A stretch of 44,740 nucleotides of DNA from Escherichia phage McMelon: the sequence record OR896838.1. One strand, written 5' to 3'. The notes under the pieces are model-generated. The model was not told the origin of the DNA, did no database searches, and saw nothing but the letters and a program-made list of their open reading frames with translations. The position numbers were made by a program, and so were the translations under genes. Below are positions 24,757-40,860 of this stretch, in pieces. The first letter of the stretch is position 1, and every line of letters begins with the position of its first letter.

Positions 24757-24785
24757 AATATAGTTGGTTGCATTATTGGTTGCAA
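24757..24785 (-). promoter_or_regulatory. sigma70-like promoter (TTGCAA-17-TATATT)
   Basis: Minus-strand TTGCAA, 17-nt spacer containing AATGCAACCAA, then TATATT; same family as 5247, 26426 and 39364. Confidence 0.45.
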
Positions 24786-25243
24786 GTGAATTTTGCAAGA
24801 TTCACAGAATAAATATGCGGGACCAGTTCTTCACACGCCCGTTTGATGGCGGCGATGTTCTTCGCGCAGTCGTCAATGATGACCAGTTCGTTAACTTCTG
24901 CATAGCACACCAGGCCAAATACGGAACGGGCCTTGTACTCTGGAGGCGGCGTGTCATCAAGCATATGGCGTAAGAACAGACGACCTTTCGGGAATCTATC
25001 CAATTGCTCTTTCGTTGACTCCCAGCAATCTGACTGGCGGTTTGACAGGTACGCAATGTCGAAGCCCTGTTTAGCGTACATGCGCAATAACGGCAGCATG
25101 TCATAATTAATGTCTTCGCGGACGTGGGCCTTATGCCACTTCGCCCAAAACGTTGATTTAGTCTTGATCCCCGGAACTAGGTCGTCGCGCACACTGCTTG
25201 ACCCGTTGATAACGCCATCTAAATCGCAAATCAGTAGTTTCAT
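24773..25243 (-). CDS. HAD-superfamily phosphatase (nucleotidase / PNK 3'-phosphatase-like)
   Basis: 156 aa; N-terminal ICDLDGV matches HAD motif I (DxDG[TV]); later IIDD acidic motif. Confidence 0.6.
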   Translation of the reverse strand: MKLLICDLDGVINGSSSVRDDLVPGIKTKSTFWAKWHKAHVREDINYDMLPLLRMYAKQGFDIAYLSNRQSDCWESTKEQLDRFPKGRLFLRHMLDDTPPPEYKARSVFGLVCYAEVNELVIIDDCAKNIAAIKRACEELVPHIYSVNLAKFTCNQ

Positions 25244-25461
25244 TTTAATTCCGCCATTAAATTTTCACGTACAATACGGGCCGAGAATGCGTCGCACACA
25301 AGATGGCAACGCGCCGTCATGACAAGCCAGCCAGTTAGGTCAAGGCCCAGCAATTGATGAGGTTGGCTTGCGCGCCTTACTTTATTTCCAGGGAAAACCT
25401 GGTAGCGTTTAATTATTTCATCCACGACGCGAGGACTTCGGTCGACGACTAAGATATTCAT
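25240..25461 (-). CDS. hypothetical protein
   Basis: 73 aa; stop overlaps downstream start; overlaps 3' end of methyltransferase gene so start uncertain. Confidence 0.3.
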   Translation of the reverse strand: MNILVVDRSPRVVDEIIKRYQVFPGNKVRRASQPHQLLGLDLTGWLVMTARCHLVCDAFSARIVRENLMAELK

Positions 25462-25954
25462 TTAATTCACCTTCGCTCATTATTTCGATTTGTGCGCTGC
25501 CGTTTGGCGGCACTTCGTCAAAGATTATCAACTGCTGGCACTTGTTATTGCTCGGCCCGACTTCACCGGTTACAGCGTGTATAAATCGGATACGCCAGTC
25601 CAGAAGAATTATCAGGTTTGCAGTCTTCCGGGCCAACCGCGCCCACTTCGTCGACGTGTCCTGATTCAGCAGCATGACAGTCCGGCGTCCGTGCGCTGCA
25701 CACTCGACCCACGGCAGCGGATCGGAATACGGCGGGTTGCACCACTTCCACCCTTTCAACTCTGACCAGTCCACATCGAGCGCGCTGTGCTCTGCCGTGA
25801 AGTAACGCGGTAGCAGGTGGTTGGCGTCGCTTGCCGCCATATCGTAACGGAATCGGTATTTCCGTCGAAGCGGTTTAAATAAAGCTGGCGGCGTGCGCCA
25901 GCTATCTTTTTGCTCACTCTCCGTCATTCTGCGGGTCCAGTGCGTATAGGGCAA
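25418..25954 (-). CDS. DNA N6-adenine methyltransferase (phage Dam-like)
   Basis: 178 aa; WRTPP near N-terminus, DMAAS and catalytic NPPY motifs; alternative start at 25927. Confidence 0.75.
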   Translation of the reverse strand: MPYTHWTRRMTESEQKDSWRTPPALFKPLRRKYRFRYDMAASDANHLLPRYFTAEHSALDVDWSELKGWKWCNPPYSDPLPWVECAAHGRRTVMLLNQDTSTKWARLARKTANLIILLDWRIRFIHAVTGEVGPSNNKCQQLIIFDEVPPNGSAQIEIMSEGELNEYLSRRPKSSRRG

Positions 25955-26378
25955 TTTTCTCTTTACTGTTTAGCACACGCCGGACTCGGGCCGTATCCGC
26001 CGGACCAAGAGGTCGGCAATCGGAATAGTAGCTGCCGTTTGTGGGATTGCGCCACGCCACAAGCACCAGGTCTTTACGGTCGATCTTAGACTGGCGGCCC
26101 TTCGGACGCACGTACTCCTCGGCGCGTTTACAATGTTCACGCAGACCTTCGGCAGTGATGCGGTTTAGTGCCACGCTGGTGGTGTATCCGGTGCGCTGCA
26201 TAATACCCATCAACTCGAAAAGCAGTTCGAAGCGTTCCTCTAACTCCTGGCGCACTTTCTTCTCTCCTTCATATAGCGCCTTGTTGGTGTCCGCCACCGC
26301 GTTCGCCCGTTCGGCCTGTTCACGGGCTTCTAGGCATTGCGCGGCCCAGTATGCCTTTTCTTCTTGTAAAATTCTCAT
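25914..26378 (-). CDS. hypothetical protein
   Basis: 154 aa, RBS GGAGA, helical N-terminal half. Confidence 0.5.
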   Translation of the reverse strand: MRILQEEKAYWAAQCLEAREQAERANAVADTNKALYEGEKKVRQELEERFELLFELMGIMQRTGYTTSVALNRITAEGLREHCKRAEEYVRPKGRQSKIDRKDLVLVAWRNPTNGSYYSDCRPLGPADTARVRRVLNSKEKIALYALDPQNDGE

Positions 26379-26459: not shown

Positions 26460-26783
26460 TTACGAATAAAAATTTGGGTCGCGTGCAACGTCTACTAGAT
26501 ACAGGTTACTCATGCGATTGCCGTAGTGCCCCGGTGTGCGCTGGCGGCACACAACGGCGAAGCCTGGCGGAATTGTATTGCCCGTCTCGATAATCCACGC
26601 CACGCGTGCGCCAGACAGCGTCTTGCCGTTGTATTCGATGCGCGTGCCACCATCGGCAGTGTTAAGGTTGCCAATCTTACAGCCTGTGGACTTCAGGCGA
26701 ATGACACCGGTCTTGCTGTCGTAGGAAAAAAGCTGATTGGTCATTGCCACTGAAAAGTCGATTGCGTCGAATGCAGTATTCAT
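26460..26783 (-). CDS. hypothetical protein, HNH_3/NUMOD-like (possibly degenerate homing-endonuclease-like)
   Basis: 107 aa; pattern GxxxEYNGK...ARVAWIIETGNTIPPGFAV...NLYLV resembles HNH_3-type proteins, but no His-Asn-His catalytic triad was recognised by eye. Confidence 0.4.
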   Translation of the reverse strand: MNTAFDAIDFSVAMTNQLFSYDSKTGVIRLKSTGCKIGNLNTADGGTRIEYNGKTLSGARVAWIIETGNTIPPGFAVVCRQRTPGHYGNRMSNLYLVDVARDPNFYS

Positions 26784-27490
26784 TTTAAATTTTCCTCGTT
26801 AACCGCTATCGCGAAGCCGCGCGGGGTGAGTGAGCGGATTAATTTTGTACGAGCGGATTTACCACCGAGGCGACTATACTGCTTCGAGTACCCTTTTTCA
26901 ACGAAAACAGGTTTCTTCTCGGGCATACGGAAGCCGTTTCCAGTCCATAAGCAGGTCAGCTTCGGATATGAATCGCGGGCGTTGATGTATTCAGGGAAGA
27001 GCGGGTGTACGTCATCCTCTGGCAGATATCCGCCATACTCCCACGGGTCAAACGAGTGGTCCGGCTTACGCCACTGGGTGGAAAGCACGCTGCGCGGATT
27101 CTCAATCATATATGGCACTTCGAAGAAATCACCCAGGTAAGCTGCGATCTTCGCGGTGCGCACCGCCTTAAGCTGGAAGGCAGGGTCGCGGGCGCGTTTG
27201 CGCGGGAAAGCTGGCGCACCGCTAACCGCCAGATCCGTACACGGCGGGAATGCGTAAATGATATCCGGCGTGCCGAAATCGCCATTCATCGCGCGATCCA
27301 CGAAGTCCAGGTCGATAAACTCATTACGATAGCGAATGCCGCGACCATAAATCCGGTAGTCAAGGTAAGACCCGTGATCGGCTTCGGAGTAGTTGAAGCA
27401 ATAACACTTATGCCCCATCTCGGCGGCACGCTCAATCATCAAGCCGCTGCCGTCAAACAATGACCAGATTGTCATTTTAGCAATAGTCAT
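26780..27490 (-). CDS. C5-cytosine DNA methyltransferase-like protein (compact, apparently lacking target-recognition domain)
   Basis: 236 aa; motif I-like LFDGSG, motif IV-like FPPC (catalytic Pro-Cys), motif VI-like IENP; far shorter than typical C5-MTases. Confidence 0.55.
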   Translation of the reverse strand: MTIAKMTIWSLFDGSGLMIERAAEMGHKCYCFNYSEADHGSYLDYRIYGRGIRYRNEFIDLDFVDRAMNGDFGTPDIIYAFPPCTDLAVSGAPAFPRKRARDPAFQLKAVRTAKIAAYLGDFFEVPYMIENPRSVLSTQWRKPDHSFDPWEYGGYLPEDDVHPLFPEYINARDSYPKLTCLWTGNGFRMPEKKPVFVEKGYSKQYSRLGGKSARTKLIRSLTPRGFAIAVNEENLK

Positions 27491-28911
27491 TTGCGCGCCT
27501 TTTTAGCTTTCATATATTCCATCAAGTCGTCCTGTATATCTCGCTTACTGTCGCGACGCTCGGCGACCAATTCGTCCAGTGTCCCGCGAGCCTGGATAAT
27601 GTAGACGAATACCGGTCGAGGGTGTCCGGCCTGCATCTGGCGAACCGGCCCGATACGTTCAACGATCTGCGAAAAGTGCTCAAAGTTCCAGGTATCGGAG
27701 AATATTGCCAGGTGATGTCCGCCGTCCTGCAAGTTAAGGCCGTGGCCCGCCGATGCCGGGTGTGCAAACATGATGGGGATCTCGCCCCTGTTCCACGCTT
27801 CCATATCCTTATTGCCCTGCTTACCTTTACCCAACGCAACGCCGTGCGGAAATTTCTTCTTAAGACGTGCCAGGTCATGCTTATACTGATACGCAACGAG
27901 CAACGGCGCGCCGTTCAACTCCTCCACGATACTTTCCAGCGCGTCCAGTTTGGCGTCGTGAATCTTCACCCACTCGTCGGTCCTTTCGCCGTCTTCGTCC
28001 ACCTTATACACAGCGCCGGAAGCAAGCTGAAGGCACTTAATTGTCTTCGATGCCGCGTTCGCCGCTTCCACAGTCCCGCTTTCCAGTTCGGCGAATAGCT
28101 CGCTTTCAAACTGGTCGTAAATCTTGCGGGCTTTCTTCGGCAGGTCCACAACAACAGGCGTATAGATTGGCTTGTCGCACCCGAAATATTCAGCCGCGTC
28201 AACGGTGAGGGATACATCTGACAGGCGTTGTTGTATTTCTTTCTCGGAGTTCTTTAGCGGGGCGTGCTGCATCGTGAAGCTGCCTGGCTTAACAGGCTTG
28301 CCAATAAACCAGCGATCGGTAAATGCCTTATAGCTACTGCCGAGGCGTTCGCCGCCGTCGACAAACCACGTCTGCCCCCATAAGTCTTTCAAGCCATTTG
28401 GCGCGGGTGTGCCGGTAAGGTTAATCCAGCGCTTGACGTGTTTATGTGCAATCGCTGCCAGTGCGCGGGCGCGCTTACTCCCCTGCTTACTCCTGTAGCC
28501 TTTCAGCTTAGTGGATTCATCGGCAACAACGACCGTAAAAGGCCACTCGTCGCCGCAATACTCGACAAGCCACTCAACCACATCATAGTTGACGCAAACC
28601 ACGTTAGCGTTGCTCTCAAGCGCTGCAATGCGGTCCTTCTCTGGTCCGGTGCCGTCTACTACCAGCAGGGCGGGGAATCTCCATTTTTCTTGTTCCGGGG
28701 GCCACGTACCAGACGCAACGCGAAGCGGGGCCAGCACCAGTACGCGGTCCTCCTGGTTGGACAGGATGCCAGTCTGGAACATTTTGTTGAGCGCCCACAT
28801 AGTCGCGCCGGTTTTGCCGGATCCCATTGTCGCCCAAATATTGCAACGCTCATGCTTAAGAATAAACGCGGTTATCAACTTCTGATATTCGCGACGTCGG
28901 AATCGTGCCAT
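27487..28911 (-). CDS. SNF2-family (DEAD/DEAH-like) helicase
   Basis: 474 aa; Walker A MGSGKT, DEST(K) box, C-terminal helicase motifs. Confidence 0.8.
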   Translation of the reverse strand: MARFRRREYQKLITAFILKHERCNIWATMGSGKTGATMWALNKMFQTGILSNQEDRVLVLAPLRVASGTWPPEQEKWRFPALLVVDGTGPEKDRIAALESNANVVCVNYDVVEWLVEYCGDEWPFTVVVADESTKLKGYRSKQGSKRARALAAIAHKHVKRWINLTGTPAPNGLKDLWGQTWFVDGGERLGSSYKAFTDRWFIGKPVKPGSFTMQHAPLKNSEKEIQQRLSDVSLTVDAAEYFGCDKPIYTPVVVDLPKKARKIYDQFESELFAELESGTVEAANAASKTIKCLQLASGAVYKVDEDGERTDEWVKIHDAKLDALESIVEELNGAPLLVAYQYKHDLARLKKKFPHGVALGKGKQGNKDMEAWNRGEIPIMFAHPASAGHGLNLQDGGHHLAIFSDTWNFEHFSQIVERIGPVRQMQAGHPRPVFVYIIQARGTLDELVAERRDSKRDIQDDLMEYMKAKKARK

Positions 28912-28915
28912 ATCT

Positions 28916-29140
28916 TTATTCCGCCTTTTTCCAGACTTCAGTCTTACTGTTCCAATTCCTCTTTGTGGCGTCGTAGTTGGTGTCGTGCCCGATATGCACG
29001 CCGGTCGAGCGGAAGCTCTTAAACTTCTGCCAGCACACCGTCAACGGCAGCGGGTCATTCATGCCTGCGATAAACCATACGCGATCACCTGGTTTGCATT
29101 CGCCCAGCTTGGTTAGTCGGTAATGTTCTTTCATCGTCAT
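28916..29140 (-). CDS. hypothetical protein
   Basis: 74 aa ORF between helicase and Zn-ribbon genes. Confidence 0.4.
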   Translation of the reverse strand: MTMKEHYRLTKLGECKPGDRVWFIAGMNDPLPLTVCWQKFKSFRSTGVHIGHDTNYDATKRNWNSKTEVWKKAE

Positions 29141-29176
29141 GTCTCCGAAAAGGGCGGGACAAGCCCGCCGTATTGA

Positions 29177-29350
29177 TTATTCTTGTTCTGCGCGGTAGCG
29201 GCGCTGCCGTTCGCGCTCTTTCTTATTGCGGCACGATTTGCACTCGGCCCGATGACCGTCTGGACTGCGCGCGGTCTTGCCGGTGTATTTGTGGAACTGG
29301 GATAGCGGCTTGATGCATCCGCAATTACTACAACGTTTTTCTTCAATCAT
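29177..29350 (-). CDS. small Cys4 zinc-ribbon protein
   Basis: 57 aa from ATG with GAGGA RBS; CSNCGC...(about 20 aa)...CKSC followed by basic tail KKERERQRRYR. Confidence 0.4.
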   Translation of the reverse strand: MIEEKRCSNCGCIKPLSQFHKYTGKTARSPDGHRAECKSCRNKKERERQRRYRAEQE

Positions 29351-29390
29351 TTCTAAAATCCTCGACAGGGCTAACCGGCACACTATACCG

Positions 29391-29669
29391 CTACGCGACC
29401 AATTCAGCAACCAATAAATCGCAATCGGCTATGTTGTCAATAACGCGAACGTCAGCCCCGCGGCGGGCCATTCGCTCATGTTCTCGCACCTGGTGCGGCT
29501 TCGGTTTTCCACCGGGGCGCTTCACTTCGACGAATACTACGATGCCGTTGATGATAATAATCAGGTCGGGCGCACCTGCGCGCCCCTCCCATGCCAGTTT
29601 GCGGCAGAATCCGCCAACCTCTTTCACCCGTCGCATCAGGTGACTTTGTATCTTGCCTTCTGGAGTCAT
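29391..29669 (-). CDS. VRR-NUC domain nuclease
   Basis: 92 aa; PD-(D/E)XK-like core GAPDLIIII...VEVK typical of VRR-NUC. Confidence 0.65.
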   Translation of the reverse strand: MTPEGKIQSHLMRRVKEVGGFCRKLAWEGRAGAPDLIIIINGIVVFVEVKRPGGKPKPHQVREHERMARRGADVRVIDNIADCDLLVAELVA

Positions 29670-40011: not shown

Positions 40012-40181
40012 ACAAACAAACCGAGTTATTCGAGAAGTGGCAAAGCAAGACCACGCGAATAATTTATTTTTTGACCCAGGAAACAAACGGCAACGTCACG
40101 ATATTACACCCTAAGAGTGGTCTGAGTCGCACTATTTCGCGTAGCACACTGATTTGTAACTACAGGAAACTGGAAAAATGA
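40008..40181 (+). CDS. small hypothetical protein
   Basis: 57 aa ORF below track threshold; ATG overlaps upstream stop and its stop overlaps the downstream ATG. Confidence 0.35.
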   Translation: MNKQTELFEKWQSKTTRIIYFLTQETNGNVTILHPKSGLSRTISRSTLICNYRKLEK

Positions 40182-40717
40182 AACTGATATTCCGCAATAA
40201 GCATAACGGGCGATTCCTTACCCCGATCGAAGTGCTGCCGAACTATGTGCGCATGTACCATGAGCCGAGCGACCGCGTATTCTGGTACAAGAAATACGGC
40301 CTACATGAACATTTGCAGGTTGTGCATCACGACGTGCGGGTCGGGGATGTGCTGCGTGATGCGCGTGACGGGTCGCTGTTAGCGGTGCTCCGCGTTAGCA
40401 CGGACGGCGTTATGCTGCGCAGTGGTAAAACACAACGCGGCGTTCTGCTCACGGGCCTGGTGAATTACGCCCGCGTAGGCCGTAACTATAAACTTAAGCG
40501 CCCTGGTGTAGTGGCGAAAGAGATCACCCGTACGGAACACCCATATACCAAATACAACGAGCGCAAGGTGCGCGAGCATATCGACAACGCCAGGGCGCAA
40601 GCTGCCGCTATGATTCAGGCCGGTGATGACGCAAAGCGCTTTGGCATTGGCGTGCTTCTGGTATACCCTGACGGCAGCATGAAGTCTACCGATCCGCGCG
40701 GGGTCGTTCTGAGATGA
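40178..40717 (+). CDS. hypothetical protein
   Basis: 179 aa; no recognisable motif. Confidence 0.5.
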   Translation: MKLIFRNKHNGRFLTPIEVLPNYVRMYHEPSDRVFWYKKYGLHEHLQVVHHDVRVGDVLRDARDGSLLAVLRVSTDGVMLRSGKTQRGVLLTGLVNYARVGRNYKLKRPGVVAKEITRTEHPYTKYNERKVREHIDNARAQAAAMIQAGDDAKRFGIGVLLVYPDGSMKSTDPRGVVLR

Positions 40718-40860
40718 GTGCGACGATCCGTGATATGCTGATGCACAACCGCTTTGAGATAGGCGGTCGGGTGTTTCGCAATTACTTCGTGGCGCGAGCA
40801 TGGGCGCGCCATATTGGCAAACCGGAAGGGGCAATTCGATGCTATACGTCTTCGCGGTAG
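40714..40860 (+). CDS. small hypothetical protein
   Basis: 48 aa ORF, ATG overlapping upstream stop (ATGA); weak. Confidence 0.25.
   Translation: MSATIRDMLMHNRFEIGGRVFRNYFVARAWARHIGKPEGAIRCYTSSR

Follow-up and report, generated by a model that had tools for sequence, protein, structure and literature searches.

We analyzed a 44,740-nucleotide stretch of DNA from Escherichia phage McMelon (record OR896838.1; hereafter the window), in which a minus-strand open reading frame (ORF) at 26780..27490 is predicted to encode a compact Dcm-like DNA C5-cytosine methyltransferase of 236 aa, or of 231 aa if read from the second ATG at 27473-27475. The first-pass annotation of the window had described a 236-aa ORF carrying LFDGSG, FPPC, and ENP in canonical order, and we confirmed these at residues 11-16, 81-84, and 130-132, respectively. 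The product is very probably an orphan S-adenosylmethionine (SAM or AdoMet)-dependent DNA cytosine-C5 methyltransferase of a compact phage Dcm-like family, PHROG 757, labeled "DNA methyltransferase", which it matched at E 7.3e-84 over residues 2-234. The C5-methyltransferase-like identity proposed earlier was supported by the predicted fold, by catalytic motifs found throughout the family, and by a 54%-identical orthologue with published 5-methylcytosine (5mC) activity, the Dcm of phage K42. From that orthologue we infer that the window protein forms 5mC as well.

The two candidate starts are separated by a 15-nt 5′ extension (27476-27490, minus strand) that encodes MTIAK, the first five codons. 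This extension was not present in the orthologue of Escherichia phage JohannBuxtorf_Bas84 (hereafter Bas84; PQ850611.1), whose ORF begins at the codon matching Met6, and several close database homologues were also 231 aa in length, so the window protein may begin at the second ATG. Either ATG could serve as the start. The first of them creates an ATGA (27487..27490, minus strand; ORF coordinates and sequence) in which the stop codon of the upstream SNF2-type helicase gene overlaps the methyltransferase start, an arrangement that suggests translational coupling.

Conservation was evaluated in a diverse alignment of 56 representatives with 35-54% identity to the window protein and in a separate alignment of closer relatives. 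Ten positions were invariant in the diverse set (C84, G91, E130, P132, P149, Y175, K177, T179, W182, and P190) and F81, P82, and N131 were at least 90% conserved there, which argues that the motif matches are not chance, that the gene is real, and that the motifs are under selection. Motif I, the AdoMet-binding loop, corresponded to SLFDGSG (residues 10-16; 27443..27463, minus strand). It resembles SLFDGIATG of DNMT3A and was paired by hhalign with DNMT3A SLFDG, CmoX motif I, and Dcm LFAGIGG. S10, D13, and G16 were at least 90% conserved among the closer relatives. The FxGxG pattern of motif I was present as FDGSG in the window protein, while the wider-family consensus was SLFDxTG, in which the first Gly is not conserved, as in FDGIATG of DNMT3A. 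Motif IV, FPPCTDLAVSG (residues 81-91; 27218..27250, minus strand), contains the invariant C84 and G91. Cys84, the predicted nucleophile, aligned to C82 of the K42/KarlJaspers Dcm and, by hhalign, to the Pro-Cys of Dcm, CmoX, and DNMT3A. Motif VI was represented by ENP (residues 130-132; 27095..27103, minus strand), with E130 and P132 invariant and Glu130 the predicted protonating residue. Its third residue is Pro, not Val, and we accepted it as an ENV-like equivalent of Glu-Asn-Val. A relaxed hhalign run (mact 0.01) paired ENP with ENV of DNMT3A at low confidence; this setting forced a longer alignment with per-column confidence essentially zero beyond motifs I-IV, and its pairings are treated as leads only.

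A motif-X-like element, LGGKSARTKLIRSLTPRGFAIAV (residues 208-230; 26801..26869, minus strand), was delineated near the C-terminus from column entropy, the relaxed hhalign alignment, and predicted helices. These residues formed the most conserved block of the protein, with a mean entropy of 1.54 bits in the diverse alignment and 0.56 bits among closer relatives, and the AlphaFold2 (AF2) model placed helices at 213-219 and 224-234. In the low-confidence relaxed alignment, LGGKS together with helix 213-219 paired with LLGRS of DNMT3A at the position of the motif X pattern GN(A/S)V, and the Asn of that pattern was missing. For motif VIII (QxRxR) there were two candidates: Y175-x-K177-x-T179, at the strand formed by residues 179-184, or the segment 147-157 indicated by relaxed hhalign. 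The conserved Arg pair of motif VIII was not seen in the alignment of 56 representatives.

The earlier description of the protein as unusually compact and without an obvious target-recognition domain (TRD) was borne out by length comparison and column entropy. At 236 aa, it compares with 472 aa for E. coli Dcm (PF00145 over 87-448), 327 for M.HhaI, 328 for M.HaeIII, and 285 for the DNMT3A catalytic domain. ENP (130-132) and LGGKS (208-212) are separated by just some 75 residues, versus about 130 in DNMT3A, counted from a DNMT3A sequence verified against PDB 5YX2. The interval from the motif VI equivalent to motif X is about 180 residues in M.HhaI, and in canonical C5-methyltransferases a hypervariable TRD fills it. 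In the window protein, the position of motif VIII and the TRD start is occupied by a conserved, mostly loop segment with one strand at 179-184, TCLWTG (residues 148-190; 26921..27049, minus strand). This segment holds six of the ten invariant positions (P149, Y175, K177, T179, W182, and P190), has a mean entropy of 1.54 bits, equal to the motif IV level in the diverse alignment, and reached a block mean predicted local distance difference test (pLDDT) score of 93-98. The sole variable stretch at the canonical TRD position was a 17-residue linker (residues 191-207; 26870..26920, minus strand), with a mean entropy of 2.83 bits compared to 1.5 bits in its flanks and a block mean pLDDT of about 85-86. 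No other hypervariable segment was found between ENP and LGGKS. Since conservation across residues 148-190 matches that of motif IV and the linker alone is variable, the absence of an obvious TRD was correctly noted. Structure prediction, which the first-pass annotation had suggested for this question, agreed: the AF2 model has well-ordered loops and one strand at the TRD position. A small conserved surface would thus read the DNA, implying either that all members of the family share one target or that specificity is low. No shared partner gene able to supply a recognition domain was found across the neighborhoods in Dhillonvirus, Hanrivervirus/Warwickvirus, and three temperate phages or prophages, which were completely different from one another, and ten longer family members (284-453 aa) contained no fused Pfam domains.

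The AF2 model, built from 142 sequences, had a mean pLDDT of 93.3 and a predicted template modeling score (pTM) of 0.90. The first 49 Foldseek hits in PDB were all catalytic domains of DNMT3A, DNMT3B, or DNMT3C, the best at E 4.6e-7, and unrelated Rossmann methyltransferases reached about 10 in the structural ranking, with ~125-150 aligned residues. The assignment to the C5-methyltransferases is therefore clear from the modeled structure; at the sequence level the two are only very distantly related. The proposed check against the Pfam DNA_methylase profile gave a divided answer. The window protein did not reach the PF00145 gathering threshold of 22 bits and had no match to that profile at E ≤ 1, and the KarlJaspers Dcm scored 11.1 bits. 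Three relatives with 62-63% identity to the window protein (P0023, P0026, and P0058) did pass, with 24.7-28.5 bits, but over profile positions 4-94 of 324 only, which cover motifs I-IV. At E ≤ 0.1, PF00145 was matched by 5/56 representatives.

The family is large and widely distributed. Within a collection of 5.8 billion proteins we found 2,873 clusters at 90% identity, a number that rose to 6,363 when a profile was used. There were 817 representatives at 50% identity, and nearly all members were 215-260 aa long. Searches with tblastn recovered 1,511 records of phage genomes. Most were Escherichia, Klebsiella, Salmonella, and Shigella phages from several families, and Campylobacter, Vibrio, Roseobacter, and Arthrobacter phages were also represented. 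When the 6 kb surrounding the window gene were searched, 162 phage records matched with 80-95% identity, and nearly all came from Escherichia phages of the genus Dhillonvirus (HK578-like small siphoviruses), which is the genus of the window phage as well. Phage vB_EcoS-EE09 encodes a protein 100% identical to the window protein, and the HK578 protein is 98.7% identical to it; many of the matching records already name it "DNA methyltransferase" or "putative DNA cytosine C5 methyltransferase". Any suggestion of novelty is thus contradicted by public phage records that hold the same protein as a cytosine methyltransferase and by a family already studied as a trigger of retron Ec86: protein and family are known, widely distributed, annotated, and represented by a characterized member. 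The Bas84 orthologue (L001:5385-6024) has a 56-bp deletion at gene nucleotides 268-323, directly after PPCTDLAV, that shifts the frame and leaves two short coding sequences annotated "DNA methyltransferase". From its sequence, this allele is a predicted natural loss of function resembling the Ec86-escape mutations of K42. Other degraded copies were observed in Shigella phage 1b, where only the last 57 residues of the methyltransferase remain beside a homing endonuclease, and in ADB-2, where the copy is frameshifted.

The characterized member comes from K42, a Drexlerviridae phage that is a strain of KarlJaspers/Bas06, in which, according to a bioRxiv preprint, four of four Ec86-escape mutants affected a 711-bp "dcm" gene (10.1101/2023.08.16.553469). 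When expressed alone, K42 Dcm was toxic only in cells carrying Ec86, and liquid chromatography-mass spectrometry found high 5mC in the retron multicopy single-stranded DNA (msDNA) with wild-type K42 Dcm and not with a C82A/E128A/K175A/K176A mutant (10.1101/2023.08.16.553469). Its target was assumed to be CCWGG by analogy with host Dcm, and msDNA stem mutants at CCTGG lose defense (10.1101/2023.08.16.553469). Later papers have taken it as established that the phage Dcm methylates msDNA and activates Eco1. BLAST located the KarlJaspers counterpart at 40087-40797 of MZ501090 (QXV82308.1, "Dcm-like C5 cytosine methyltransferase", 236 aa), and BLASTP aligned it to residues 5-236 of the window protein with 54% identity (E 2e-86). 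C82, E128, and K175 of K42 Dcm correspond to C84, E130, and K177 in the window protein, which as a single-domain protein of 236 aa with these three residues conserved has the features of the compact Dcm-like family. The Cys/Glu/Lys-dependent 5mC formation by K42 Dcm means that the chemistry proposed by the first-pass annotation has been shown for an orthologue, not for the window protein.

The neighboring genes described here all lie on the minus strand, and the neighbors named in the first pass (SNF2 helicase, Dam-like methyltransferase, and HAD phosphatase) were correctly identified according to Pfam and PHROG matches. The upstream SNF2-type helicase (27487-28911) matched PF00176 with 41.2 bits against a cutoff of 24.9. 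Downstream is an HNH-endonuclease-like ORF (26460-26783; PHROG 99, 1.9e-15; no Pfam match) whose start overlaps the methyltransferase stop in a second ATGA at 26780..26783, as read from ORF coordinates and sequence; it appears to be translationally coupled to that stop and may be a homing endonuclease. A 154-aa ORF (25914-26378) matched PHROG 10530, "DNA ligase", at 3e-91 and had no Pfam match. This label looks doubtful because conventional ATP- or NAD-dependent ligases are far larger than 154 aa. Next come the phage Dam methyltransferase (25418-25954; PF05869, 1.8e-35), a 73-aa ORF defined by its coordinates (25240-25461), and a HAD-like phosphatase (24773-25243; PHROG 415, 1.2e-30; Pfam matches below threshold). 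The 73-aa ORF occupies the position described for Ksap1, a 74-aa Dhillonvirus protein sensed by the Klebsiella defense protein Avs2 (PMC11564622). On the other side of the helicase, the Bas84 gene syntenic to window ~29137-29410 (minus strand) is at L001:7713-7892 and is annotated "Lar-like restriction alleviation protein"; it stands between a VRR-NUC-like endonuclease gene and a small gene upstream of the helicase. Given that annotation, the replication module may hold a second anti-restriction function beside the two methyltransferases.

If the window protein follows the established C5-methyltransferase reaction, the target cytosine would flip out of the helix, Cys84 of the motif IV FPPC would attack C6, and Glu130 of the motif VI ENP would protonate or hydrogen-bond N3/N4. 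The methyl group would then move to C5 from AdoMet, whose binding would involve the SLFDGSG loop and the LGGKS helix at the C-terminus, and beta-elimination would free the enzyme. Contact with DNA would be made through the conserved segment 148-190 (Y175, K177, T179, and W182) and the 17-residue linker rather than through a separate variable TRD. Expression would occur from the early/replication module, with translation coupled to that of the SNF2 helicase. Replicating phage DNA would probably be methylated, blunting 5mC-sensitive restriction. The same activity may also be a liability, since an enzyme of this kind sets off abortive infection when it methylates the msDNA of Ec86 (Eco1).

Several results weigh against this interpretation. 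The window protein had no Pfam or NCBIfam match, even at E 1 or 10. The family profile gave no significant match to PDB sequences (M.HaeIII 0.66, DNMT2 1.1), and phmmer likewise stayed at noise level. Alignment of the family profile to E. coli Dcm by hhalign was not significant (E 0.34) and covered motifs I-IV only, and the hhalign matches to DNMT3A (E 1.2e-4) and CmoX were weakly significant and restricted to the same motifs. The acidic residue of motif II, an Asp in at least 90% of the wider family, is Asn33 in the window protein, but Asn also occupies this position in the active K42-type orthologue. Equivalents of motifs VIII and IX were not placed in the window protein, and no motif IX was recognized. 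The equivalent of K176, one of the residues mutated in K42 Dcm, is Leu178. As for the target, the claim of CCWGG for the orthologue is an assumption from analogy together with msDNA mutants that could act otherwise. The window showed neither avoidance nor enrichment of CCWGG (153 sites, observed/expected (O/E) 0.94), and this count, like those of other sites, is uninformative for specificity. The literature searched contained no Dhillonvirus methylation or usable restriction-digest data. It also contained no usable measured recognition sequence for the family.

A rival reading concerns specificity and not chemistry: the protein would be a true C5-methyltransferase whose target is shorter than or different from CCWGG, or relaxed, perhaps acting as a DNMT3-like dimer. 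We consider this possible, though doubtful. The ~75 residues from ENP to LGGKS contain no hypervariable segment and 148-190 is conserved like motif IV, which would suit such an enzyme, yet a uniformly conserved DNA-contacting segment fits equally well with one fixed 4-5 bp target across the family. The best structural matches, DNMT3A/B, recognize CpG with the smallest TRDs and have a role for dimerization, and E. coli Dcm-type sequences had no detectable relation beyond motifs I-IV. In the dcm+ host MG1655, msDNA 5mC was low and Ec86 was not triggered, whereas the phage enzyme did trigger it. These observations leave room for a different or shorter target, and a different target cytosine would explain them easily, but overexpression alone could account for the higher 5mC, and the CCTGG mutation in the msDNA stem abolished defense as expected for a CCWGG target. 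If the target is indeed short or different, phage DNA would be densely methylated, the protein would offer a minimal natural C5-methyltransferase scaffold, and the triggering of Ec86 by the phage enzyme but not by the dcm+ host would be explained. Separately, we observed strong under-representation of several 6-bp palindromes in the window relative to Markov expectation: CCCGGG (0 vs 7.9 expected), CAGCTG (2 vs 15.1), CTGCAG (2 vs 11.4), GGTACC (1 vs 5.4), and GAATTC (3 vs 8.7). CCWGG, CCGG, and GCGC were not depleted, and GATC was mildly depleted (O/E 0.80) despite the phage-encoded Dam.

Other readings would alter the partner, the product, or the enzyme class. It is unlikely that the compact module needs the adjacent SNF2 helicase to find its DNA targets, as in DNMT5 or phage helicase-methylase fusions. 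The methyltransferase gene does overlap the helicase stop codon, and Hanrivervirus and Warwickvirus phages have a helicase gene two genes downstream. BFVD also holds similar modules inside two very large proteins of uncultured Caudovirales phages, A0A6J5SE15 (1,397 aa, "Helicase/UvrB, N-terminal"; E 2e-10) and A0A6J5NPY6 (1,126 aa; E 2.5e-8), with TMq 0.64, so the compact module appears to exist as a helicase fusion too. However, K42 Dcm expressed from a plasmid alone sufficed for msDNA methylation and Ec86 triggering, and homologues with ~46-52% identity in temperate-phage or prophage contexts had no helicase within 5 kb, their neighbors being small ORFs and integrase, GP88, and PAPS-reductase genes. 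Because the helicase belongs to the replication module, the adjacency may be mere synteny. A carboxymethyltransferase like CmoX, using carboxy-SAM (Cx-SAM) made by E. coli CmoA to produce 5-carboxymethylcytosine (5cxmC) instead of or besides 5mC, is very unlikely. In CmoX, the motif X Asn is replaced by Arg350, the residue that selects Cx-SAM, and engineered M.MpeI N374K achieves this selection with Lys (PMC12783734). In the relaxed hhalign alignment, Lys211 of the window protein (LGGKS) falls at DNMT3A Arg891 (LLGRS), plausibly the position of Arg350 in the CmoX GRMVPP, and the K42 study did not look for 5cxmC. This motif X equivalence comes from a low-confidence alignment, though, and DNMT3A, an ordinary methyltransferase, carries Arg at the same position. 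Lys211 was at least 90% conserved among close relatives but fell below both the 90% and the 50%-majority thresholds in the wider family. The window protein has FPPC and not the SPPC that defines CmoX candidates, a tblastn search of the window for homologues of cmoA and cmoY found none (best E 0.89 and 2.4, respectively), and the K42 orthologue raised msDNA 5mC. An enzyme repurposed for another pyrimidine modification, as the first pass had entertained, is accordingly disfavored. Finally, the lack of Pfam, NCBIfam, and PDB sequence matches could suit some other Rossmann methyltransferase (an RNA/tRNA m5C enzyme like DNMT2, or an N-methylase) or a dead DNA-binding protein, but we find this extremely improbable: Pro-Cys and ENP are invariant, the structural ranking contradicts a non-DNA or inactive enzyme, and the DNA activity of the orthologue depends on its Cys and Glu.

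An orphan DNA cytosine-C5 methyltransferase in this phage is thus a real but ordinary finding, as a relative in a T1-like phage methylates DNA and sets off a retron defense, and the protein is already catalogued. With the right name in public Dhillonvirus records and a family member under experimental study, the identification itself adds little. The recognition sequence matters more, as it decides which restriction systems are evaded by ~1,500 phage genomes, many of them candidate therapeutic coliphages or Klebsiella phages. How a C5-methyltransferase of ~230 residues without a variable domain would read DNA also bears on minimal scaffolds for epigenome tools and on the resemblance to DNMT3. 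We predict that Dhillonviruses with an intact gene are sensed by retron Ec86/Eco1 and that natural loss variants such as Bas84 escape.

With canonical PF00145 enzymes (E. coli Dcm, M.HhaI, and M.HaeIII) the window protein shares the fold and the predicted Cys/Glu chemistry, and it carries motifs I, IV, and VI in the same order, but it is ~90-240 residues shorter and has neither a hypervariable TRD nor a recognizable motif IX. E. coli Dcm combines PF00145 (362 residues) with an N-terminal PF18284, and neither was found in the window protein. A tblastn search with E. coli Dcm recovered phage records of a different composition: Mycobacterium, Streptococcus, and Klebsiella came first, and Escherichia was outside the ten commonest names. 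CmoX of Synechococcus phage S-B43 (PDB 8YF3) is likewise phage-encoded and has a PPC motif and a basic residue near the motif X position; it differs in its 372 aa, its full TRD, its SPPC in place of FPPC, and its location adjoining cmoA and cmoY. The likeness to DNMT3A/3B (6U8P, 5YX2, and 8TDR) includes an identical SLFDG in motif I, a motif IV of the form PCxDL(S/A) rather than the bacterial PCQxFS, and no large TRD. DNMT3A RLLGRS...IRH is also echoed by RLGGKS...IRS in the window protein, a pairing without statistical support that serves as a lead only. Identity to DNMT3A/3B is just 12-16%, and the DNMT3 domain, which retains motif IX and a TRD loop, exceeds the window protein by ~50 residues. 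DNMT3 enzymes act as a tetramer with DNMT3L, target CpG, and have the smallest TRDs among solved C5-methyltransferases. The closest known system is the K42/KarlJaspers Dcm. The two proteins differ at 46% of residues and belong to phages of different genera, and the window gene lies between the SNF2 helicase and HNH genes, whereas the KarlJaspers gene lies between small hypothetical genes. Their full-length match puts them in the same family (of the two, the window protein alone was scored against PHROG 757), and both are orphan enzymes of virulent coliphages, 236 aa long and encoded by a 711-bp gene. Their catalytic Cys and Glu align exactly, as does one of the two mutated Lys residues.

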